36,394 nt of DNA, taken from positions 1 to 36,394 of IMG/VR virus record IMGVR_UViG_3300047335_000135; one strand, given 5' to 3'. Positions 2,992 through 36,394 of the stretch are shown piece after piece. The stretch's first letter is position 1; each line of letters starts with the position of its first letter. This stretch comes from a virus. The notes beneath the pieces are model-generated. The model saw only the letters and a list, made by a program, of their open reading frames with translations. It did not search any database and was not told the DNA's origin. Both the position numbers and the translations under genes were made by a program.

Positions 2992-3429
2992 ATGTCATGG
3001 ATAAAAACTTCAGATCAATTGCCCCCAAAAGATAGACGATTTATGGCATTAGATGCTCGGTATAATTATGACCCTCATACTATTATTGAGTTTATTGAAA
3101 AAGAAAGGGGGGCTTGTGATGATGAAGAATGCGAAGAATGTCCTGGGCATTATGTAGCACAAAAATATTGTGAAATGGATATATGTAGATGTCGAGAGCA
3201 ATATACTTTAGATGAGTTCTTATACTACTTTCCTTACTGGCAATTGTTGGAAGAGCCACCAAAGGAAATAGAAAGTTTTCACCTCTGTGGTTTTTGTAGA
3301 ATATCCGTACATGCAAAGTTTGTTTCATATTCAAAAGGATCAGATCCTAGAATATACAAAAATAGGCATATATGTGATTATTGTAGAAATCACGAGCGCA
3401 ATAGTAATTACACATTTTACGATCAATAA
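2992..3429 (+). CDS. Cys-rich hypothetical protein with a DUF551-like N-terminus
   Basis: MSWIKTSDQLPPKDRRF resembles the M-x-W-I-x-v-x-D-x-L-P start of DUF551 phage proteins (from memory). It has several CxxC pairs. The same N-terminal motif recurs in the ORF inside intron 3. Confidence 0.5.
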   Translation: MSWIKTSDQLPPKDRRFMALDARYNYDPHTIIEFIEKERGACDDEECEECPGHYVAQKYCEMDICRCREQYTLDEFLYYFPYWQLLEEPPKEIESFHLCGFCRISVHAKFVSYSKGSDPRIYKNRHICDYCRNHERNSNYTFYDQ

Positions 3430-3430
3430 T

Positions 3431-3450
3431 CCCACAACCGTGGGAATTTT
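3431..3450 (+). terminator. Weak terminator-like hairpin
   Basis: cccac-aacc-gtggg followed by aattttat. The stem is only 5 bp. Confidence 0.3.
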
Positions 3451-3645
3451 ATATCGCCTCTTCACACACCATTATTCTTAATGGTATATTCTCTCTGAGC
3501 AGTATCGAAGTGACGCTCGCTTCAACAAACCCCATCGGGCTGTATGAGTTTCGCCCACTCAACGTGCAGTATGCACATTTCTGGCTGTACAAGTCTCGCC
3601 AACTTACGTGTGTTTATGTGAAATAGCATAATGTAAGGTTTTTAC

Positions 3646-3681
3646 ATGCCTATTACAACTACAACCACATTACCTGCGCCT
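3646..3681 (+). CDS. Major capsid protein, exon 1 of 4 (MPITTTTTLPAP)
   Basis: ATG preceded by taaggt. The exon ends at T3681, which can form a U.G pair in a P1 helix: gcgccT 3676-3681 with Gggcgc 3691-3696. Joining to 4181 is in frame and gives LPAP|VQQSFSYKLL, which matches the N-terminal pattern of N4 gp56-type capsid proteins. Confidence 0.7.
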
Positions 3682-4180
3682 AAACGAGATGGGCGCGTTA
3701 AATCTTCTCTAATAGACTTGGAAACCGTAGTGGCGTTAAGTTAACCGGTGACAAGGGGCAAGATTATGAAAAGAAAATGTTCAAGCTGTAAACAGCAAAA
3801 AGAAGAAAATAAGTTTATGAAACCTGACCATAAAACATGCGAAAAATGCATTATGCGTGTTAGAAAATGGGAACGAAGAACTAAACGGTATTACTTTGGA
3901 CATCAAATATGATCAGCCTGAACGTAGCAAGCGAGAAGACTCTAGTGAATGATTGCTGTAAATACATTAGAAAGTTAAATATTTTCATAGAATGGTTGAG
4001 GGCCTGTGATCCAGATCCTAAAACTCGTCATGATATAATATGGGCTACTAATGAATTACACAAACTAGAGATGCGGTGCTCTGAACATTGTGGAAACACA
4101 GTGAGGGAAGCTCAATAAACTTCCTCGCCTAGAAAGTAGTGTGCAATAAGCACACCATAGGTCACAAAAGTAACAGATTG
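3682..4180 (+). mobile_element. Group I intron 1 in the capsid gene (499 nt)
   Basis: P1 / internal-guide pairing with a U.G pair. The conserved block aaatcttctctaatagacttggaaaccgtagtgg (3700-3733) is shared with intron 3. The shared 3' core is cctgaacgtagcaagcgagaagactc...gagatgcggtgctctgaacattg..gaaa..cagtgaggga. The intron ends ggtcacaaaagtaacagattG (omega-G at 4180). Confidence 0.75.
3766..3912 (+). CDS. Intron-1 ORF: 48-aa CxxC...CxxC zinc-ribbon-like protein
   Basis: My translation is MKRKCSSCKQQKEENKFMKPDHKTCEKCIMRVRKWERRTKRYYFGHQI. The ATG follows caaggggcaagatt, the same site where the intron-3 ORF starts. It is below the ORF-track cutoff. Confidence 0.4.
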   Translation: MKRKCSSCKQQKEENKFMKPDHKTCEKCIMRVRKWERRTKRYYFGHQI

Positions 4181-4456
4181 GTCCAACAAAGTTTCAGTTA
4201 CAAACTCTTATCGGTTCCTGTTCCAAACATGATCCATAAGATACCAGCTGAACTTAAAGTCATGCCTAGGAATGGTGGTGTTACGCTGAGAATGCGTAGA
4301 TATAATCCGTTACCAACTGCGTTAGTGCCACTTGGCAATACAGGTGTTACGCCTCCGAGTGTTAATTTGACGGCTATCGATATAGATGCCACCGTTTCAT
4401 TCTACGGTCAGTACATAATCCTTAACGAACAGGTTACTTTACAGAATCAAGACCCT
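4181..4456 (+). CDS. Major capsid protein, exon 2 of 4
   Basis: VQQSFSYKLLSVPVPNMIHKIPAELKVMPRNGGVTLRMRRYNPLPTALVPLGNTGVTPPSVNLTAIDIDATVSFYGQYIILNEQVTLQNQDP matches the conserved N-terminal half of HK97-fold / N4 gp56-type capsid proteins. The MCNKHTIGHKSNRL prefix of track ORF 4139..4477 is intron sequence. Confidence 0.85.
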
Positions 4457-5618
4457 AGACAAGCGATTGTAGCTTAACATTGACAGCGGTAAGTTTTTTC
4501 TGTAGCATAAGTAATATATTTACTTTTATGTGCGGAGAAAACATGAGAAAAGAGGAATTAATGTCATACCTTGCGGGAATAATTGATGGGGATGGAAGTT
4601 TTTCCATACTAAGAAAACAAGAAAAGAAAGACTTGTCTCCTTCATATTATCCATGCATTCAGTTTTCTAAATCATCAAATATACTTCCAAAATTATTACA
4701 TGATAACTTTGGAGGACGACTTTCTTGTGTTGATAGGAAAGAAAAAAGTGTCTTAGAGTATAAGTGGCGACTAGAAAGATCTGAGAAGTGTAGACCATTT
4801 TTAGAAGAAATAAGCCCATACTTACATATTAAGCAAGAGCAGGCTTTTGAATTGATAAGATTTATAGAAGATAATCCATTTAAGCGTGGAATAAGAGTAA
4901 CAAAAGAAGATATTTCATGCAGAGAAAACGCTAGAACTAGGGTTATGAATCTAAATGCTCGAAGGGATACCAAGTCTAAATTGAATAATTCGGTTAATTT
5001 TTCTTATAAGAGTGGTTTATTTTGGTCCTATTTGTCGGGATTATTGGATACTGACGGATCTTTTTCTATAAAGAAAGAGCGACGGGGAATTTATTCTCCT
5101 ATGGTATTGCTAAGTCTTATAAATTCTAAAGCAATCAATTTTATTAAAAACAATTGTAGTGTTGGTTCATTTTTTGTTGTTAAAGCACCACAGTTGCTTC
5201 AAAAGTTTTATTATCGTTTTGGTGTGTACAATAGAGATGAAGTTGTTGTTCTTCTAGATCAAGTAATTCCATATTTACTTCATAAAAAAAATTCTGCGGA
5301 AATCCTTAGAGATTTTTGTAATGGATATGTATCTCAGGGTGGAAGATATCTAAAGACAAAAGAGCAAGATGATTTTCGAGAAAACTGCTATCAAAGTTTG
5401 GTTAAATCAAATGGGGTCTATAAATCTCATCTAATAGACTTGGAACTCTTACCAGGCGATGCTGGAGACAACAGGGCGGAAGCAGCGGAAGCGTGCACCG
5501 TGAACGTAGTAAGCGATGAGACACCGGAAGGTGATGCGGTACTCTGAACTCTATGGAAACATAGAGAGGTAGGCTGAGAAGATCTACCCGCCAGAAATGG
5601 TCATAAAGTAACAGAATG
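4457..5618 (+). mobile_element. Group I intron 2 in the capsid gene (1162 nt), carrying a LAGLIDADG endonuclease gene
   Basis: P1 pairs agacccT (4450-4456) with Ggggtct (5413-5419), giving a U.G pair at the splice site. The guide is followed by aaatctcatctaatagacttggaa, homologous to introns 1 and 3. The 3' core is gaacgtagtaagcgatgagac...gatgcggtactctgaac, and the intron ends ggtcataaagtaacagaatG (5618). Confidence 0.8.
4543..5547 (+). CDS. LAGLIDADG homing endonuclease (double-motif, monomeric type)
   Basis: Two LAGLIDADG motifs: YLAGIIDGDGSF and YLSGLLDTDGSF. I chose the start at ATG 4543 (MRKEEL), 5 nt after ggag. The track ORF starts at 4480 with a non-ATG codon. The 3' end runs into the conserved intron core. 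Confidence 0.9.
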   Translation: MRKEELMSYLAGIIDGDGSFSILRKQEKKDLSPSYYPCIQFSKSSNILPKLLHDNFGGRLSCVDRKEKSVLEYKWRLERSEKCRPFLEEISPYLHIKQEQAFELIRFIEDNPFKRGIRVTKEDISCRENARTRVMNLNARRDTKSKLNNSVNFSYKSGLFWSYLSGLLDTDGSFSIKKERRGIYSPMVLLSLINSKAINFIKNNCSVGSFFVVKAPQLLQKFYYRFGVYNRDEVVVLLDQVIPYLLHKKNSAEILRDFCNGYVSQGGRYLKTKEQDDFRENCYQSLVKSNGVYKSHLIDLELLPGDAGDNRAEAAEACTVNVVSDETPEGDAVL

Positions 5619-5738
5619 GTTTTGAATCAGGCGGCTGAAAGGCTCGGGGTCTCATTGAGACAAACAGAGGATACGCTGACTCGTGATATGCTTGCAGCTA
5701 CAGCGGCCTTCATAAACTGTACTGCTGGTGTCAACGGT
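5619..5738 (+). CDS. Major capsid protein, exon 3 of 4
   Basis: VLNQAAERLGVSLRQTEDTLTRDMLAATAAFINCTAGVNG continues the capsid-family pattern (...DP|VL...G.q....D.ltRd.l.a.t). Both junctions are in frame. Confidence 0.85.
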
Positions 5739-6172
5739 AGAATTGTTGCCGTTGTAAAATCTTCTCTGATAGACTTGGAAACCGTAGTGGTGTTTAACTA
5801 ACCGGCGACAAGGGGCAAGATTATGGAATGGATAAAAGTAACAGATAAGACAAAAATAAGAGCAGATAGATTTTTAGTGTTACTTCCAAATGACTTAGCA
5901 AATGACCAATATTGGCCACACATAGCAAGTAGACATTTTGGAAGCAACATTGAATTCGATATTGATGAATTAGAGTCATGCTCTGGAGAATGGAGATTAT
6001 CTGACTTTGCTTATTATGCCTATCTTTATAATCAGCCTGAACGTAGCAAGCGAGAAGACTCACAGAAATGTGAGATGCGGTGCTCTGAACATTGCAGAAA
6101 TGCAGTGAGGGATAAGTAGAGAAAGTCCCCGCCAAATAGAAATTATTTGGTCACAAAAGTAACAGAAAAATG
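5739..6172 (+). mobile_element. Group I intron 3 in the capsid gene (434 nt)
   Basis: P1 pairs caacggT (5732-5738) with Gccgttg (5748-5754), giving a U.G pair. The block aaatcttctctgatagacttggaaaccgtagtgg (5757-5790) and the 3' core (6033-6112) are near-identical to intron 1. The intron ends ggtcacaaaagtaacagaaaaatG (6172). Confidence 0.8.
5823..6119 (+). CDS. Intron-3 ORF with a DUF551-like N-terminus; its 3' third overlaps the intron core
   Basis: MEWIKVTDKTKIRADRF parallels MSWIKTSDQLPPKDRRF of ORF 2992..3429. The tail QPERSKREDSQKCEMRCSEHCRNAVRDK is read-through of conserved intron RNA, so the true coding extent is uncertain. Confidence 0.4.
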   Translation: MEWIKVTDKTKIRADRFLVLLPNDLANDQYWPHIASRHFGSNIEFDIDELESCSGEWRLSDFAYYAYLYNQPERSKREDSQKCEMRCSEHCRNAVRDK

Positions 6173-6688
6173 GACAACCCTACTGAAATTCAACGACCTG
6201 ATGTTGATACGGTGGTGCGAACATTGCTTGATAACGATGCTTACACCGTATTAGATAACATACAGGGTGAAGACCGTTTCGGTACTGCTCCTGTTCGAGA
6301 TGCGTACTTTGCTCTTTGCAGTACTCAACTTACTGGTAACTTAGATGCAGTTGCTGGATTTATTCATAAGAATAACTATCCATCACCTATGAATGCGTTA
6401 CGAAGCGAGTGGGGCTCCATTGGCAACCTACGTTTCTTGATTTCTAGTATTGGTTCTGCAATTCCTTTTGCATCTGCAAATGGTAATACCGTATACAACA
6501 TATTCTGTGTTGGTATGGAAGCATATGCCTGCGTGGAACAAGATGGATATAGTGCGGCCTTTATATATCGACCACCGATATATGATGGTCCATTGGCTCT
6601 TAATGCGTCTGTTGGGTACAAGTTTGCTGAGGTCCCGCGTATCTTAAATGATGCCTGGGTAATCAATTTACGTGCAACACAAGCCTAA
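6173..6688 (+). CDS. Major capsid protein, exon 4 of 4
   Basis: DNPTEIQ...SEWGSIGNLRFLISS...VYNIFCVGMEAYACVEQDG...PLALNASVGYKFAEVPRILNDAWVINLRAT matches the C-terminal GE.G...g.RF....Vy...v.G..ay..v...g....PL....vG.K......iLn..w pattern of this capsid family. The spliced product is 315 aa. Confidence 0.9.
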   Translation, partial: DNPTEIQRPDVDTVVRTLLDNDAYTVLDNIQGEDRFGTAPVRDAYFALCSTQLTGNLDAVAGFIHKNNYPSPMNALRSEWGSIGNLRFLISSIGSAIPFASANGNTVYNIFCVGMEAYACVEQDGYSAAFIYRPPIYDGPLALNASVGYKFAEVPRILNDAWVINLRATQA

Positions 6689-6697
6689 GGAGTAACT

Positions 6698-7771
6698 ATG
6701 AATAATACTATTACTCTACAAGGTCAATTTACATCAACAGGTGCTAATATCATCATACCTATACCATCGGGTGTAAGTTGGATGAGAGTGCTTAACCAAA
6801 CAGCGCTTACGCAAGCCGCTGCCGTTTTAGGGTATGATTTCTTCTGGCAGGTAGGCATGCCTATTTCCCAGGGTGTTGTGTGGACTAAAAATGGTGGTTT
6901 AGCTAATAACTCGGTTACTGTTGGTGAACTTGCTGCTAATAATGGCTTTACTGTTATTAATACATCTATTGCTACTCCTGGTGTGTCATATGCTATTACT
7001 GGGTTTAGTGCCGCTAATCCTCCAGTTGTTCTCACAGCGACTACTCCTCTTGTGGGTCAGTTTGTACGATTGGCAAACCTCAATAACCAACCGCAATTTG
7101 CAGGTATCGATTTCCAAGTTACTGCAGTTAACCCTGGAGTAAGTTTTACACTTGGTGGTGTTAACGCCGTAGGTACTGTAGTTTCTAACGCGGGTAGTTA
7201 TAGAGTTATTCCTGTATCTCAATGGTATCCAACCCATCGAGCTATTACCTATATGTCAGCTGAAGTAACACCTGTAATCTATACTTCTGTTAGTAGTGGA
7301 TACCAAGTTGGCCAAGAAATACGTCTTAACTTCCCTGGTGGCACTCAAGTCTGGGGTAATTATGCGCTTCTTGATGGTATGCAAACAACTATTCTTGCTG
7401 TGGGTAACGCTCCTGTTATTGTAACCGGTAATGAACCTACAACACTCTTTACTATTACAGTAAATATAGATACATCAGCGTATGGCCCTTGGGCATTTGC
7501 TGGTCCTACGTACTATCCACCTGCTGCTTTAGTTCCGTTCTCTCCCGCTCAAACAACACCGATCGGTGAATATACCTCTATAGCATTACTTAATAACGTT
7601 AACATCCTCAGTGATGCAACGTTAAACACTGCATTTATAGGTATGCAACTTGGTGGTGGTCTGCGCGGAGCCGGCGCTCAAAACGCAGGACCTGCTGGAG
7701 GATTCAATACTGGTACTGGTATTGGTGACTCTATGTTCTGGATGGCTGGTAATACCTTCACGTTTTATTGA
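6698..7771 (+). CDS. Virion structural protein (putative), with two small beta-barrel-like repeats
   Basis: Strong RBS taaggagtaact. It lies immediately after the capsid gene. Segments ANPPVVLTATTPLVGQFVRLANL...FQVTAVNPGVSFTL and VTPVIYTSVSSGYQVGQEIRLNF...TTLFTITVNIDTS resemble the core of ORF 8283..8660. Confidence 0.5.
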   Translation: MNNTITLQGQFTSTGANIIIPIPSGVSWMRVLNQTALTQAAAVLGYDFFWQVGMPISQGVVWTKNGGLANNSVTVGELAANNGFTVINTSIATPGVSYAITGFSAANPPVVLTATTPLVGQFVRLANLNNQPQFAGIDFQVTAVNPGVSFTLGGVNAVGTVVSNAGSYRVIPVSQWYPTHRAITYMSAEVTPVIYTSVSSGYQVGQEIRLNFPGGTQVWGNYALLDGMQTTILAVGNAPVIVTGNEPTTLFTITVNIDTSAYGPWAFAGPTYYPPAALVPFSPAQTTPIGEYTSIALLNNVNILSDATLNTAFIGMQLGGGLRGAGAQNAGPAGGFNTGTGIGDSMFWMAGNTFTFY

Positions 7772-17905: not shown

Positions 17906-18445
17906 ATGGCATATAAAAGAATTAGTCCACAACCAGTTAATGAAGGCGGTACTGGCGCTCTTACCTTTACAGCTCATTCAGTATTGTTGGGACAAGGAAC
18001 CTCAGCCGTTACTGCGCTAGGTGCTGCTACGAACGGACAACTGGTAATTGGATCGGCAGGAGCTAACCCGGTACTTGCAACATTAACGGCAGGGAGTGGT
18101 GTATCAATATCAAATGGTTCAGGATCTATTACTATATCAGCTACAGGAACTTCTACTTTTAATTATACAGCTGTGAGCACTACACCTTATGCTGTAGCAG
18201 CTACTGATGATTATTTGGGCGTAACAACAACAGTTCTCGCTATAACTATTCAGTTGCCCAATGCTCCAGCAACCGGCAGATCATATATTATTAAAGATAC
18301 TTCCGGATCTGCTGCTACAAATAATGTAACGGTTACCACAGTAGGCGGTGCGGTTACTATTGATGGTGCTACCACATTTATAATGAATACTGCTTATCAA
18401 TCCATTGAGGTTATATTCAATGGTGTTTCATACGAAGTATTTTAA
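17906..18445 (+). CDS. Fibre protein paralogue B
   Basis: N-terminal anchor motif MAYKRISPQPVNEGGTGA. The C-terminus ...IIKDTSGSAATNNVTVTTVGGAVTIDGATTFIMNTAYQSIEVIFNGVSYEVF matches ORF 17405..17890. Confidence 0.6.
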   Translation: MAYKRISPQPVNEGGTGALTFTAHSVLLGQGTSAVTALGAATNGQLVIGSAGANPVLATLTAGSGVSISNGSGSITISATGTSTFNYTAVSTTPYAVAATDDYLGVTTTVLAITIQLPNAPATGRSYIIKDTSGSAATNNVTVTTVGGAVTIDGATTFIMNTAYQSIEVIFNGVSYEVF

Positions 18446-18454
18446 GGAGATAGT

Positions 18455-19426
18455 ATGGGCTATAAACGAATAACGCCTATGCCGGTAGTCGAAGGTGGTA
18501 CCGGCGATTCAACTCTAGGATCAACACAGATTCTTATAGGTAATGGCACATCCGGTATTGCTTCTACATCTAATGCAACCATAAATACAGGAACGGGTGC
18601 AATAACACTCAATAGTGGAACTGGTGCTTTAGGTATATCTACCGATGCGTCTGCCACAACGGTTAGCATTGGAACGGGCGGAGCTGCTAAAACTGTATCT
18701 TTGGGAAGTACCAATACTACATCTACTACGACAGTTCAAAGTGGTTCTGGTGGCATATCTGTTGCCACATCAACAAATGGTACTATTGCCCTTACTTCGG
18801 GCACGGGTGCGATTAATATTGGAACTGATGCTAATGCTAAAACGATAACTATAGGAAATACGACTACAAGTACTGCTACTAATATTAATCTTGGCACTGG
18901 CAATATGACGGTGGCATCTGCTACTGGTACGCTCATTACACAAAAATCTACCGGAGAAATGACTCGGCCTTTGCAGCCGGCATTTTTCTATTATCAAGCC
19001 AGTAATTCATCGGGAGTTACCGGCAATAACACTACGTATACATTTGGATCTTCTACGGCATTAACAAAGCTTTTTGATCAGGGTAATAACTGTACGACTG
19101 CGGGCGTTTTTACGGCACCCGTTACCGGTATATACATGTTTAATGCGTGTATGCGTTTAACGAGCATTACTACCGCTATGACCCAAGGTAAAATTACGAT
19201 AGGAACTTCAATATCAAGCAATGCTGTACTAACTAACTATAATCCTGGTGCGACGATTGATAACTCTGGTCAATTAAGTATGCAGGTAAGCGGACTTATA
19301 CAAGTAACCGCATCATCAACTATTAGTGTATTTATTGTACTTATTAATGGAGCAAGCAACGCAGCAGTTATTCAAGGTTCATCGGGAAATTATCTCAGTT
19401 ATTTTTCTGGCTATCTCGTATGTTAA
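18455..19426 (+). CDS. Fibre protein with a C1q/TNF-like globular C-terminal domain
   Basis: N-terminal anchor MGYKRITPMPVVEGGTGD. The C-terminus ...LFDQGNNCTTAGVFTAPVTGIYMFNACMRL...YFSGYLVC fits the C1q pattern (N.G...tG.FtaPv.G.Y.F ... FsGfL). Confidence 0.6.
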   Translation: MGYKRITPMPVVEGGTGDSTLGSTQILIGNGTSGIASTSNATINTGTGAITLNSGTGALGISTDASATTVSIGTGGAAKTVSLGSTNTTSTTTVQSGSGGISVATSTNGTIALTSGTGAINIGTDANAKTITIGNTTTSTATNINLGTGNMTVASATGTLITQKSTGEMTRPLQPAFFYYQASNSSGVTGNNTTYTFGSSTALTKLFDQGNNCTTAGVFTAPVTGIYMFNACMRLTSITTAMTQGKITIGTSISSNAVLTNYNPGATIDNSGQLSMQVSGLIQVTASSTISVFIVLINGASNAAVIQGSSGNYLSYFSGYLVC

Positions 19427-19435
19427 GGAAATATC

Positions 19436-19477
19436 ATGTCAAATAAAGCGCACGGTACTAATTACGAAGTATTTTAA
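19436..19477 (+). pseudogene. 13-codon remnant of a fibre-gene 3' end (MSNKAHGTNYEVF*)
   Basis: Its last codons and the following spacer (tacgaagtattttaaggagatagt) are identical to the 3' end and spacer of ORF 17906..18445 at 18431-18454. Confidence 0.55.
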
Positions 19478-19486
19478 GGAGATAGT

Positions 19487-20110
19487 GTGAGTTATAAACG
19501 CATAACACCTCAGCCAATTGTCGAGGGCGGCACTAATGCCTCTTCTATGACCAATACGGATGGTGTTGTTTACTATGATGGAAGTAAATTAAATACAACA
19601 ACAGTGGGAACTGCTGGTCAAGTGCTTACATCAAATGGTGCTGGAGTTGCGCCAACATTTCAAGCTGGTGGTGGAGGTAGTAATCCAGCAGCAAATTGTT
19701 CGTTTGTTGCTCATGCTTCTGCTGGAAGTCAAACAGTAACTGCTGGAAATATTACTACAGTAACATTTGGAACTGTTGTTACTAATAACGGATCTGTTTT
19801 TGCAGGTAATACATTTACAGTTCCAACATCAGGAAAGCTTTATTATCTTTCTTTTGGGATTACCGCACAAACAGCATCTACAGTCGATTCCGCCTACATT
19901 AATGTAAATGGCACTCAGATAATATATACACATAACGTATCAACAATTGCCACAGGATATTTTACTTTTTCAGGATCAATTGTTGTTCCGCTTACGTCTG
20001 GAGATACCGTTACTATTAGCTATCAAAACGGAAGCGGAACAACAAGTGCAACACTCCTTGGAGATGCAGCTATTTATTATACGTATTTTGTAGGATATCA
20101 ACTTACATAG
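19487..20110 (+). CDS. Fibre protein with a C1q/TNF-like C-terminal domain (GTG start)
   Basis: N-terminal anchor MSYKRITPQPIVEGGTNA. The C-terminus VTFGTVVTNNGSVFAGNTFTVPTSGKLYYLSF...TYFVGYQL fits the C1q-like pattern. Confidence 0.6.
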   Translation: MSYKRITPQPIVEGGTNASSMTNTDGVVYYDGSKLNTTTVGTAGQVLTSNGAGVAPTFQAGGGGSNPAANCSFVAHASAGSQTVTAGNITTVTFGTVVTNNGSVFAGNTFTVPTSGKLYYLSFGITAQTASTVDSAYINVNGTQIIYTHNVSTIATGYFTFSGSIVVPLTSGDTVTISYQNGSGTTSATLLGDAAIYYTYFVGYQLT

Positions 20111-20117
20111 GAATTTT

Positions 20118-22169
20118 ATGGCAAATAAAGCACGACGTCTTTCGGGTATTAATACCCTCGCCTATATGGGCATAGATCCCATAACTGCCCCCTACCTCGT
20201 AGTAGAGCAGCGCATACCCACACAAAATGATCTCGTTGGTATGCAAATAGGTGCCATATGGATACTTGAAGAGAACTTTGAAAATAATGTCCCTCCGCGC
20301 ATATTCTTCCTTTGTGGCCTTAATCGAAATATAGCAGACTGGATAGAGATACTTACCGCAGGTGCAGGTGTCGCTGAAGAATTTGTTACTGATAATGGCG
20401 ATGTATTTCCTGCTGTGGGAGTTATTAATGTAAATGGTGGCATATCTACTGGTGGAGCTGCTACCAATATTAATACATACGCCAATCCTGCAAATAGCAA
20501 CAATCTTGTAGTAGCTCTTAATAATTCTATTTCTCAACCTAATACCTCAGCTGATGGCACCAAAGGGCTTTATAGCCTTGGTGGTCAGCCATTTCTTTAT
20601 AACTATGGCACACGCAATACTTTTGTAGGATCTAATGCTGGTAATCTTACATTAACTACTGCATCCGCTACCGACAACACCTTTGTGGGATCATTTGCGG
20701 GCAATGCTGTTACCACGGGCAATCAAAATACATTTGTTGGATCTAGTGCTGGAAGTCTGGTTACATCATCAGCCGGAAACACTGCCTTGGGCTTCCAGGC
20801 TTTAAGTGTTGATACTAACGTTGCTGGCGCCAATGTGGCTGTGGGATGGAATGCTTTTGGTGCCGTTACGGCCGCTTCTTCATCAGTTGCCATAGGTTAT
20901 AATGCTGCAAATGCAAATAATAATGCCAACAACGATGTTTGTATTGGCTTTAGGGCTATGCAAAATGCAGCAACTGCGGTAGGTGTATCGGGCAATACTG
21001 TTGTGGGTGCACAAGCACTTCAAAATGTAACTTCTTTCGGTAATACAGCAGTTGGCAAAGGATCATTACAAGCATTAACATCGGGAACTGGAACCGCTGT
21101 CGGCATCAATGCATTACAATCTGAAACAACCGGCCCACATAATATAGCTATTGGTAATGGTGCAGGGCAAGCACAAAATGGTGCTAGTAATAATCTTTAT
21201 ATTGGAGATGCTGCTGGAGCAAATAATCAATCCTCTACCGTTATGGCAATTGGTTATAATGCTTTAAATGCCGCTGCTAATTTAAGTACTTCAATAGCAA
21301 TTGGCAACGCGGCTGCACAAAACTCTGGACCACTTCTGGCCGCACTTATAATTGGCCATGGTACCGCGGGTACTATTAATAATGGTAATGTAGGAACTAC
21401 AAATAACAATATATTCATAGGTCATGATTCGTTACAAGCAGCAGGTTTAGTTGGTGGACAGGATATTGTTATTGGAAACTTTGCTGGCAATTCTATGACG
21501 ACGGCTACACAAACTACCTGTGTTTCTCATCTTGGATTTGGCGCTCTCACCACAGGAGTCCACAATACCGGAATAGGCCATCAAGTGGCAAGTGCTCTTG
21601 TTACCGGTAGTAACAACTGCTTTATGGGATATATAGCCGGCGAAAACTATACGGGAGCAGAAAGCAATAATATATGTATTGGCGCATCAGTAACGGGAAC
21701 CGTGGGTGAAAGCAATACCACCCGTATCGGTGTACAAGGCACACAAACTAAGTGCGTTATAGCAGGCATACGTGGTGTTACTACGGGCAATGCTGACGCT
21801 ATTGCAGTCTTAGTTGATAGTGCTGGCCAACTTGGAACCATATCCTCATCTCGTCGTTATAAAGAAAATATAGATGATATGGATGATGCAAGTGATGCTC
21901 TCTATAAGCTACGCCCTGTAGTGTTTAACTACAAATCAGATGAAACAAAGCGCATGCAATATGGTCTCATAGCAGAAGAAGTAGAAGAGGCGATGCCGCG
22001 CCTTGTAGTATATAACGAAGATGGATTACCAGAAACGGTAAAATATCATGATCTACCTGTGCTTTTACTTAATGAAATCCAACTACTTAATGCGCGGATA
22101 ACTGATTTAGAGGATGCTAGAATATCGCGCAGATCACCTTGCAAAGAATGTAGCATTTCGATACAGTAG
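20118..22169 (+). CDS. Large tail fibre/spike with a C-terminal intramolecular chaperone (peptidase S74-type) domain
   Basis: Repeats of NTFVGSNAGN / NTFVGSFAGN / NTFVGSSAGS type, resembling YadA-head or fibre repeats. The C-terminal ISSSRRYKENIDDM...LRPVVFNYK...YGLIAEEVEE..P.LV...DG.PETVKYHDL matches the auto-cleaving chaperone domain of endosialidase-type fibres. Confidence 0.75.
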   Translation: MANKARRLSGINTLAYMGIDPITAPYLVVEQRIPTQNDLVGMQIGAIWILEENFENNVPPRIFFLCGLNRNIADWIEILTAGAGVAEEFVTDNGDVFPAVGVINVNGGISTGGAATNINTYANPANSNNLVVALNNSISQPNTSADGTKGLYSLGGQPFLYNYGTRNTFVGSNAGNLTLTTASATDNTFVGSFAGNAVTTGNQNTFVGSSAGSLVTSSAGNTALGFQALSVDTNVAGANVAVGWNAFGAVTAASSSVAIGYNAANANNNANNDVCIGFRAMQNAATAVGVSGNTVVGAQALQNVTSFGNTAVGKGSLQALTSGTGTAVGINALQSETTGPHNIAIGNGAGQAQNGASNNLYIGDAAGANNQSSTVMAIGYNALNAAANLSTSIAIGNAAAQNSGPLLAALIIGHGTAGTINNGNVGTTNNNIFIGHDSLQAAGLVGGQDIVIGNFAGNSMTTATQTTCVSHLGFGALTTGVHNTGIGHQVASALVTGSNNCFMGYIAGENYTGAESNNICIGASVTGTVGESNTTRIGVQGTQTKCVIAGIRGVTTGNADAIAVLVDSAGQLGTISSSRRYKENIDDMDDASDALYKLRPVVFNYKSDETKRMQYGLIAEEVEEAMPRLVVYNEDGLPETVKYHDLPVLLLNEIQLLNARITDLEDARISRRSPCKECSISIQ

Positions 22170-31896: not shown

Positions 31897-31994
31897 TACC
31901 CGGTAGCTCAGCGGTAGAGTGATTGCCAGTAAAACGAGATTATTAGTTGTAATTTTGGGCAATTGGGACGTTGGTTCGAATCCAACTCGGGTTT
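31897..31994 (+). tRNA. tRNA-like gene with about 25 extra nt in the anticodon arm; identity undetermined
   Basis: The acceptor tacccgg / tcgggtt has a 1:72 mismatch. The D arm is gctc-agcggta-gagt and the T arm is gttgg-ttcgaat-ccaac. The anticodon stem halves attgc (31922-31926) and gcaat (31959-31963) are separated by 32 nt instead of 7. Confidence 0.55.
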
Positions 31995-32079: not shown

Positions 32080-32153
32080 GACCTGTTAGTTTATTGGTAG
32101 AACCCTGGGTTTTCAGCCCAGAGGAAAAGGTTCGATTCCTTTACAGGTTGCCA
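32080..32153 (+). tRNA. tRNA-Glu (anticodon UUC) with encoded CCA
   Basis: Folded manually. Acceptor gacctgt / acaggtt, D arm gttt-attggta-gaac, anticodon arm ctggg-ttTTCag-cccag, variable agga, T arm aaagg-ttcgatt-ccttt, discriminator g, then cca. Confidence 0.75.
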
Positions 32154-36130: not shown

Positions 36131-36394
36131 ATGGAAGAACAAAATTTAGATCAAGTAATAGAAAATGTAGCTGACAATGGAGAGCAACTTGAGCAGTCTG
36201 CACCGGTGGATGTTGCAACACAGCCCACGCCACCTGCACAAGCAAATTCATACGAACAAAACCTTAAACGACTCAGAGAAAAAGCTGAGCGAACAGATTA
36301 TTTGGAAAGAGAACTTGCCCGAGTCATGCAAGAACAACAGCGGTCCAACACTGTATCTCCTGATGATGGCCCTAGTTTTGCTGACGATGATCTT
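36131..36394 (+). CDS. Scaffolding-like protein, N-terminal part (continues at base 128 after circularisation)
   Basis: ATG 36131 follows aggagaagt. The segment is 264 nt, or 88 whole codons to the window end. Base 128 is in the same frame as ORF 35..586. Confidence 0.5.
   Translation, partial: MEEQNLDQVIENVADNGEQLEQSAPVDVATQPTPPAQANSYEQNLKRLREKAERTDYLERELARVMQEQQRSNTVSPDDGPSFADDDL
36268..36394. repeat. Terminal direct repeat copy 2, identical to 1..127
   Basis: Same 127-nt string as the window start. Confidence 0.95.

Follow-up and report, generated by a model that had tools for sequence, protein, structure and literature searches.

The stretch of DNA analysed here (the window) is the 36,394-nt viral record IMGVR_UViG_3300047335_000135 of IMG/VR. 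Because it carries an exact 127-nt direct terminal repeat (1-127 = 36268-36394), it represents a complete genome that measures 36,267 bp and is either circularly closed or terminally redundant, in keeping with the "36-kb phage" of an initial annotation of this DNA. The locus of interest, 3646-6688 (3,043 nt), contains four capsid-coding segments separated by three related insertions, one with a predicted LAGLIDADG endonuclease gene and two with small open reading frames (ORFs). Sequence comparison indicates that it is very probably the phage's single major capsid protein gene, of the N4-gp56/HK97 type, interrupted by three paralogous group I introns (Table 1).

Exons of the capsid gene and their uninterrupted homologs

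The initial annotation described ORFs 4139..4477, 5616..5801 and 6170..6688 as pieces of one capsid protein, each padded with unrelated residues. All three are present, each with a short unrelated extension on one or both sides, and translation confirms that the four-exon join stays in frame and gives the 315-aa protein then proposed. The exons measure 36, 276, 120 and 516 nt, each divisible by three; joined, they form a 948-nt frame with a Shine-Dalgarno-like AAGG 8 nt 5' of its ATG (3646). The intervening stretches have a G+C content of 35-38%, against 44% in the exons, and load 2.1 kb into a 0.95-kb gene, or 5.8% of the genome.

A homolog search over 5.8 billion proteins yielded 2,613 relatives. 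The best 120 of these are 304-317 aa long and 81-90% identical, nearly all with 96-100% query coverage, and more than 100 uninterrupted proteins (314-317 aa, 81-90% identity) align to the spliced protein without gaps; for those of 315 aa the identity is 82-90%. At P12/V13, P104/V105 and G144/D145 an 11-sequence alignment contains no gap at all, and the residues flanking these junctions (LPAP-VQQ, QDP-(V/A)LN and G-D.PTE) are invariant or nearly so; the expectation that every junction restores the family pattern holds. One uninterrupted homolog, P0002, is encoded on a 32.6-kb contig (L120) which has a gene order in common with the window (portal, small genes, capsid). When this intron-less allele (L120:4001-4948) is aligned to the window DNA, a large gap opens at or within a few nt of each predicted position, and the junction codons are CCA-GTT, CCA-GCT and GGT-GAT in L120 versus CCT-GTC, CCT-GTT and GGT-GAC in the window. 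Since both protein and DNA alignments to intron-less homologs place them in contiguous sequence, the junctions are fixed without any RNA model, and with them the terminal G of each insertion (G4180, G5618 and G6172), as initially proposed.

Profile searches agree. The NCBIfam equivalog TIGR04387 (N4-gp56 family major capsid protein) matches residues 4-310 of the spliced product in one stretch across all three junctions, covering profile positions 1-320 of 324, with 139 bits for a cut-off of 60; the two large fragment ORFs on their own score 42.9 and 53.5 bits, below that cut-off. In the same way, phrog_1357 ("major head protein") matches residues 3-276 in a single stretch over the three junctions (E 3e-28), and PF25209 matches residues 44-212, crossing junctions 2 and 3 (31.6 bits, cut-off 27). 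No second capsid gene was found among the genome ORFs scanned and the genome is complete, so splicing would be biologically required. Capsid is presumably also the most highly expressed late gene. A gene caller would report three capsid fragments, each below family cut-offs, together with "hypothetical" ORFs, and the true 315-aa capsid protein emerges only after splicing.

Other comparisons were less informative. A blastn search of 3400-6900 against 50,697 phage records gave zero matches, the highest identity in a tblastn search of the capsid protein against phage records was 27%, and a PDB sequence search with the spliced protein found nothing. AlphaFold2, run on the spliced protein with the 11-sequence alignment, gave a predicted local distance difference test (pLDDT) score of 30, which is unusable.

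Pairings and covariation in the intervening sequences

The sequence blocks that the initial annotation saw in all three insertions are indeed there: GATGCGGTRCTCTGAAC occurs in 3 copies in the window against 0.09 expected from shuffled sequences (none of 100 shuffles reaches 3), and GAACGTAGYAAGCGA in 3 exact copies. The rest of the genome outside 3646-6688 contains no copy of the shared blocks. A scan of IMG/VR with a 15-nt core pattern revealed at least 119 loci. Among the 119 loci listed, 60 have at least two of the other three motifs, and 61 instances among the matches listed (three window introns included) have the core5, core3 and 3'-tail motifs in order.

The common plan of the three insertions comprises P1 followed by P3-P9, P9.1 and P9.2, with a GAAA tetraloop in L9 and a 6-nt J8/7. 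No P2 is found in the family: only 5 nt separate the guide from P3, and there is no helix between P3' and P8. At the 3' end, 2-5 nt lie between the invariant tail UCA(N)AAAGUAACAGA and the terminal G. Attempts by hand to find a pairing partner for the invariant tail AAGUAACAGA or the 7-nt J3/4 considered ACUU of P4 (4 bp), CUG/CAG as P9.0, and GAC/GUC; these candidates were dropped because they involve invariant bases or clash with the covariation-supported P4. A P3 of 8-9 bp was likewise rejected, the next pair being U-C.

The P1 helices lie where they had been placed: gcgccT 3676-3681 with Gggcgc 3691-3696, agacccT 4450-4456 with Ggggtct 5413-5419, and caacggT 5732-5738 with Gccgttg 5748-5754. 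Across the family, 52 of 58 members form a P1 of 6-7 bp ending in U.G with their own exon, using 40 guide variants; a guide matched to the exon of another member pairs over 3.2 bp on average. Of the six members that lack such a P1, four have an ORF in the P1 loop, like intron 2. P10, in which the nucleotides immediately 5' of the guide pair with the first ones of the 3' exon, averages 3.85 bp in the 58 members and 1.38 bp in swapped controls; it measures 3, 4 and 5 bp in introns 1, 2 and 3.

Covariation was assessed on 49 members, aligned as "mini-introns" with loop inserts excised. Helices P3, P4, P5, P6, P7, P8, P9 and P9.1 were written in canonical order, with P3 crossing P7. Standard pairs fill 97.3% of the 2009 cells, and 26 of the 41 pairs have changes on both sides, at least one of them in every one of the eight helices. 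None of 500 shuffles matches the observed pairing values, and sliding the partner by 1-3 columns leaves 38-48% paired. P3 and P4 vary little within this set. For P3 a prediction was tested in four divergent members with altered P3' strands (GAAGAGA, GAGAGGA, GAGAAGG and GAAAAGA): the complementary heptamer was found upstream where expected, and two of the four also have compensated P4 changes. Within the window, P3 of intron 2 (TCTCATC/GATGAGA) is compensatory relative to introns 1 and 3, and its P7 has U-A where the other two have C-G. In the family, P7 reads G[U]AGCA/UGCUC, and combines a bulged U, an invariant G-C and one covarying pair (C-G or U-A, 7 sequences). The bulged U is missing from a member of about 190 nt that has no ORF, as is to be expected of a bulge.

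Energy-based folding and profile searching give a consistent picture. Unaided, RNAfold recovered P3, P4, P5, P6, P8, P9, P9.1 and P9.2 on the contiguous core of intron 2, with an energy z-score of -1.44 that is not significant by itself. A covariance model, R1, was built from 21 metagenomic 3' domains with zero window sequence and searched against the whole genome with filters off. It matches intron 3 at 6035-6169 (146 bits, E 7e-42), intron 2 at 5498-5618 (104 bits, E 2e-29) and intron 1 at 4002-4180 (67 bits, E 2e-18) and 3916-3984 (28.5 bits), the two halves being split by the P8 insert; nothing else in the genome falls below E 0.1. With P1 and P10 that follow the insertion site in 58 members, eight core helices with compensatory changes and a successful P3 prediction, the assignment of the insertions to group I introns is supported by comparative sequence analysis.

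Several observations weigh against this assignment. The initial annotation had proposed to judge it by Rfam Intron_gpI (RF00028), taking the lack of a covariance-model hit as a refutation, and this model gives no match on the window at its gathering score or at E values up to 10. It is also silent on the 206-nt contiguous core of intron 2 and on a 232-nt intron of a related locus (L117). P1 of intron 2 must close a 956-nt loop. The frame of the upstream exon meets a stop after 21, 7 and 21 codons in introns 1, 2 and 3 (at 3742, 4475 and 5799), the exon-1 and exon-3 stops (3742-3744 and 5799-5801) both lying in L5, so that ribosomes on the upstream exon would enter introns 1 and 3 by about 20 codons through P1', P3 and P4, which could interfere with folding. 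In the P7 register, A-U and not G-C directly follows the bulged U, so the invariant G-C one step further in is only a candidate for the guanosine-binding pair. The peripheral elements seen (no P2; P9, P9.1, P9.2; GAAA in L9) do not allow a subgroup (IA-IE) to be assigned, and the support as a whole consists of sequence analysis.

The Rfam result was calibrated on phage T4 (L123, NC_000866 137955-145112). Intron_gpI of Rfam 15 scores the td intron at 40.3 bits, for a gathering score of 50, and misses the nrdB intron at E values up to 1. Since a proven T4 intron falls below threshold and another is missed, the silence of Rfam is uninformative for phage introns, and the proposed yardstick was badly chosen. 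The same control is a caution for scans which rely on Intron_gpI to detect phage group I introns.

Table 1. Coordinates of the capsid gene, its intervening sequences and their features (window positions, except in the last row).
Feature	Position	Strand	Description
Exon 1	3646..3681	+	Codons 1-12, MPITTTTTLPAP; identical to N-terminus of uninterrupted homolog P0001; last 7 nt (3675-3681) form a P1 strand, partner 3691-3697
Intron 1	3682..4180	+	499 nt, predicted group I; terminal G 4180; P8 loop of 119 nt
Intron 1 helices, P1-P5	P1 3675-3681/3691-3697; P3 3703-3709/3933-3939; P4 3717-3720/3752-3755; P5 3724-3727/3746-3749	+	
Intron 1 helices, P6-P8	P6 3756-3759/3916-3919; P7 3924,3926-3929/4077-4081; P8 3940-3945/4065-4070; J8/7 4071-4076	+	
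Intron 1 helices, P9-P9.2	P9 4086-4092/4097-4103; P9.1 4105-4110/4120-4125; P9.2 4128-4131/4158-4161	+	P9 with GAAA loop
Intron-1 ORF	3766..3912	+	48 aa, P6 loop; CxxC...CxxC, zinc-ribbon-like
Exon 2	4181..4456	+	Codons 13-104; residues 13-104 of uninterrupted homologs; TIGR04387 positions 8-100
Intron 2	4457..5618	+	1162 nt, predicted group I, endonuclease gene in P1 loop; terminal G 5618
Predicted LAGLIDADG homing endonuclease gene	4543..5547	+	334 aa; motifs LAGIIDGDGSF, LSGLLDTDGSF; intron 2 P1 loop
Intron 2 helices, P1-P5	P1 4450-4456/5413-5419; P3 5425-5431/5515-5521; P4 5439-5442/5472-5475; P5 5452-5455/5462-5465	+	
Intron 2 helices, P6-P8	P6 5476-5479/5498-5501; P7 5506,5508-5511/5540-5544; P8 5522-5525/5530-5533	+	
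Intron 2 helices, P9-P9.2	P9 5549-5555/5560-5566; P9.1 5568-5572/5584-5588; P9.2 5591-5593/5598-5600	+	P9 with GAAA loop
Exon 3	5619..5738	+	Codons 105-144; residues 105-144 of uninterrupted homologs
Intron 3	5739..6172	+	434 nt, predicted group I; terminal G 6172
Intron 3 helices, P1, P10, P3	P1 5732-5738/5748-5754; P10 6173-6177 with 5743-5747; P3 5760-5766/6052-6058	+	P10 of 5 bp
Intron 3 helices, P4-P7	P4 5774-5777/5809-5812; P5 5782-5784/5803-5805; P6 5813-5816/6035-6038; P7 6043,6045-6048/6081-6085	+	
Intron 3 helices, P8, P9	P8 6059-6064/6069-6074; J8/7 6075-6080; P9 6090-6096/6101-6107	+	P9 with GAAA loop
Intron 3 helices, P9.1, P9.2	P9.1 6109-6113/6125-6129; P9.2 6132-6138/6144-6150	+	
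Intron-3 ORF	5823..6119	+	98 aa; start right behind P6 5' strand; in frame via P6', P7, P3', P8 and P9 into P9.1
Exon 4	6173..6688	+	Codons 145-315 and stop; residues 145-315 of uninterrupted homologs; TIGR04387 positions 149-320
Multi-intron capsid genes of related contigs	L024 2250-4850 (minus); L092 510-3035; L049 2412-4598; L025 3003-6334		

Proposed splicing and mobility, and rival explanations

The proposed splicing pathway would start on the late pre-mRNA, where each guide pairs with the last 6-7 nt of its upstream exon to form P1, the bond to be cleaved following the U.G wobble. A free guanosine bound in P7 would attack that bond. The terminal G of the intron would then take the same pocket while the first 3-5 nt of the downstream exon pair beside the guide (P10), and the freed exon end would join the next exon. 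Three such reactions would restore the 948-nt frame and hence the 315-aa capsid protein. This pathway, catalysis and the order of splicing included, is deduced from the anatomy. If it proceeds as proposed, one message must undergo three ribozyme reactions before this phage can make virions, and its supply of capsid protein would be affected by RNA folding, ribosome traffic and the competition of intron-plus with intron-minus relatives.

Loss of self-splicing in insertions of group I origin is improbable, whether because a protein cofactor (one of their own ORF products or a host factor) is needed or because the genome is a defective one riding on helpers. Self-splicing is itself a prediction from sequence, the ORF of intron 1 is out of the family's usual frame and the P8 of this intron contains a large loop. 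Moreover, the ORFs overlap the ribozyme core, so that ribosomes and folding compete. On the other hand, the core helices have been kept through compensatory changes in all three copies, including intron 2, which is the most divergent, the exons are free of frameshifts and stops and 90% identical to intact homologs, and the genome is complete. Dozens of related genomes with 1-5 such introns in the same essential gene are also hard to square with dead alleles.

Far less credible still are two readings in which the insertions are not group I introns. One would make them another class of intervening sequence: group II introns, a different ribozyme, or inteins removed at the protein level. LAGLIDADG domains do occur in inteins, and Rfam gives the RNA no group I label. 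The boundaries, however, are of the form U-A...G- (A(A/G)A...UG; hyphens mark the splice sites) and not the GUGYG...AY of group II, and no Rfam group II intron family is among the matches reported at E values up to 10. Protein splicing is impossible because an in-frame stop follows each junction within 7-21 codons and the insert lengths are not multiples of three; neither a Hint nor an intein domain was detected in the Pfam scan. The signature of group I is guide-exon pairing on either side, together with the P3/P7 pseudoknot. The other reading, in which three copies of a mobile repeat akin to miniature inverted-repeat transposable elements or insertion sequences have turned the capsid gene into a pseudogene and resemble introns only incidentally, deserves hardly any weight. 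It would account for three similar repeats within 3 kb, one of them with a nuclease gene. Against it, the insertions are nucleotide-exact, with neither target duplication nor loss of exon sequence, their structure is conserved through covariation, and each copy has a 7-nt guide matching its own upstream exon, for which a DNA transposon would have no reason.

Within the group I reading, the LAGLIDADG gene of intron 2 suggests a route of mobility. Its product is recognised by PF00961 (LAGLIDADG_1; E 9e-9, 36.6 bits for a cut-off of 23.1) and, at the second motif, by PF14528 (22.6 bits, cut-off 22.5); a GGAG lies 5' of its ATG. The ORF passes through the guide and P3-P8 and ends at a TGA inside P7 3'/J7/9. 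Among the family loci listed, homologous ORFs occupy the same intron position in L017, L084 and L094, all at this capsid site and at no other, and the same site is occupied by endonuclease-less introns in L075, L078 and L129. Homing of intron 2 into alleles that lack it is most likely the work of this enzyme, which would presumably cut them at codon 104/105 during co-infection so that the intron is copied in.

Introns 1 and 3 carry no endonuclease recognisable by Pfam or PHROG. The intron-1 ORF has weak Pfam zinc-finger matches (E 8e-4, below cut-off) and stops just before the P6 3' strand, whereas the norm in the family is in-frame reading into the core; it may be decaying. The intron-3 ORF has no Pfam or PHROG match of its own, but it contains the family-typical in-frame passage NQPERSKREDSQKCEMRCSEHC, and its N-terminus (MEWIKVTDK...) resembles the DUF551-type N-termini of other family members. 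Separately, a free-standing 145-aa gene just 5' of the capsid gene (2992-3429, +) encodes a protein with a Cys/His-rich C-terminus and, at its N-terminus, a weak DUF551 match (MSWIKTSDQLPP, E 0.003); its product resembles the DUF551-type N-termini of several intron ORFs.

This ORF layout is general. In 44 of 51 non-redundant introns with a P6-loop insert, an ATG preceded by a Shine-Dalgarno-like AAGGGG, made up of P4/P6 nucleotides, is located 15 nt or less from the P6 5' strand, and the ORF runs in one fixed frame through P6', J6/7, P7 and P3', reading ...QPERSKRED... Of the two P6-loop ORFs in the window, 5823-6119 conforms to this pattern and 3766-3912 deviates from it. The N-termini are hypervariable, 45 sequences falling into 38 clusters, many with CxxC pairs. 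Pfam and PHROG scans of these 45 ORFs identified no known endonuclease, and instead DUF551 (3 ORFs), DUF6980, DUF6300 and weak zinc-finger matches; the idea that they are known homing endonucleases was rejected for lack of a nuclease domain in these scans. On the 3' side of P8 the ORFs end in any of three frames, and for that reason a conserved C-terminal peptide (...MRCSEHCGNTVRDK) was rejected as a catalytic module.

The distribution of the introns is strongly biased. Nearly all family members sit in capsid genes of this family, some of which share only about 40% identity with that of the window, and a few are in a portal-like gene or a divergent capsid gene. tblastn across spliced junctions places them at 25 or more distinct codon positions, plus two ending at a junction (residues 126 and 186), that is, at least 27 sites. 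R1 detects 146 copies in 100 related loci. Capsid genes have six exons in L024 and five in L092, L049, L025 and L021. Since several related capsid genes have four or five introns, the three of the window are mid-range for the clade, in which relatives reach up to five per gene; the relatives with four or five will be mis-annotated in the same way as the window, and Rfam will not flag them. Intron similarity does not track insertion site: mean identity is 0.74 between introns at the same site in different genomes, 0.80 between different sites of one genome (7 pairs, up to 0.93) and 0.76 for all other pairs.

We propose, tentatively and as a reading that may well prove wrong, that these introns are a specialised lineage almost confined to the capsid gene of one uncultured phage clade, which reaches new sites through changes of its guide, and that the P6-loop ORFs represent new cargo or a device coupling translation to splicing. 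Changes in the 7-nt guide would direct an intron to a new position, mostly without a classical homing endonuclease, by plausible routes such as reverse splicing or recombination between copies. One conserved core at 27 or more sites of a small gene, with at least 40 guide variants, constitutes a natural experiment in the colonisation of new sites by group I introns. How this happens is usually argued from ribosomal DNA phylogenies and is directly testable here, and the family alignment and R1 provide a detector for these introns.

Among 185,579 reference genomes, all seven matches to the family are in this capsid gene, on contigs binned into unrelated metagenome-assembled genomes. These intron-bearing contigs (L124-L130) are labelled Nitrososphaeria, Chlamydiia, Babeliales, three Bacteroidota and Actinomycetota and are probably for the most part mis-binned phage contigs; the one labelled Actinomycetota (L130, CAVYKV010000002.1, a 546-kb contig) could be an integrated or chimeric copy. 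Assigning a host from the labels of the seven matches was rejected, the labels being inconsistent.

Known systems and genome context

It is well established that essential phage genes can contain group I introns (PMC3984707, PMC2988022). The orf142 gene of Staphylococcus phage Twort contains three related self-splicing group I introns (Landthaler & Shub 1999, PMC22036; via PMC6669764), and a crystal structure of the Twort ribozyme is cited in PMC3984707. As in orf142, the window has paralogous introns at different sites of a single phage protein-coding gene. In contrast to Twort, where the interrupted gene belongs to a large myovirus, the host gene here is the major capsid gene of a podovirus-like 36-kb genome, relatives reach five introns per gene, and the introns have no P2 and no P7.1/P7.2. 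The Twort and T4 introns belong to subgroup IA, with such extra helices.

For the combination of similar cores and divergent ORFs, the DNA polymerase introns of SPO1-like hydroxymethyluracil (HMU) phages come closest as a precedent: their cores are very similar and the ORFs in the same loop highly divergent (Goodrich-Blair & Shub 1994, PMC308352; via PMC10580990). Those introns occupy one site of one gene and the present ones 27 or more sites; unlike those of the HMU phages, the P6-loop N-termini analysed here form unrelated clusters, have no known nuclease domain and are followed by in-frame reading into the core. The HMU-phage intron ORFs are HNH endonucleases.

In T4, the td, nrdB and nrdD (sunY) genes illustrate group I introns in essential phage genes with an endonuclease ORF in a peripheral loop (PMC2988022). 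The T4 and window introns have in common an in-frame stop after the 5' splice site. They differ in that the genes interrupted in T4 serve nucleotide metabolism and have a single intron each, with endonucleases of the GIY-YIG or HNH type, whereas the window has three in a capsid gene, one of them with a LAGLIDADG endonuclease gene; and Rfam detects td weakly and none of the window introns. Jug jumbo gut phages have terL, nrdD and DNA polymerase genes split by many group I introns, some with LAGLIDADG, and metatranscriptomes confirmed their splicing (PMC12880540). About 18 short introns, found with published subtype models, are dispersed among many genes of these 360-402 kb genomes; the present case involves a small genome, one intron family and one gene. 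The intron-encoded endonuclease gp210 of PhiPA3 was shown experimentally in the RNA polymerase gene of a jumbo phage (PMC11620839) and its role there is a plausible one for the intron-2 LAGLIDADG enzyme, here predicted from sequence. Finally, Faustovirus and other giant viruses have a major capsid gene in many exons, with group I introns discussed (PMC6247863), but Faustovirus is a eukaryotic giant virus with a double jelly-roll capsid and complex splicing, and neither gene nor introns are homologous to those described here.

Precedents exist for introns in essential phage genes, for three in a single phage gene and for intron-rich metagenomic phages. What is unusual is the host gene and the intron density, the near-exclusive use of one gene at such a number of sites, the ORF layout and the invisibility to the standard model. 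No account of this intron family or of the capsid-gene hot spot was found in the searchable literature, outside which most subscription journals lie.

Two further features of the genome lie outside the capsid gene. A 71-nt direct repeat (82% identical; 18431-18501 and 19463-19533) comprises the ribosome-binding sites and first codons of the adjacent genes 18455-19426 and 19487-20110, which lie upstream of a tail-spike-like gene (20118-22169) and are probably paralogous structural or tail genes. At 31897-31994 (+), Rfam reports a tRNA match of 41 bits (gathering score 29) with a 31-nt insertion inside the anticodon arm; ARAGORN makes no call there and only one of tRNA-Glu(UUC) at 32080-32153. 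This may represent either a tRNA-like element or a tRNA gene that is split by a short intervening sequence.

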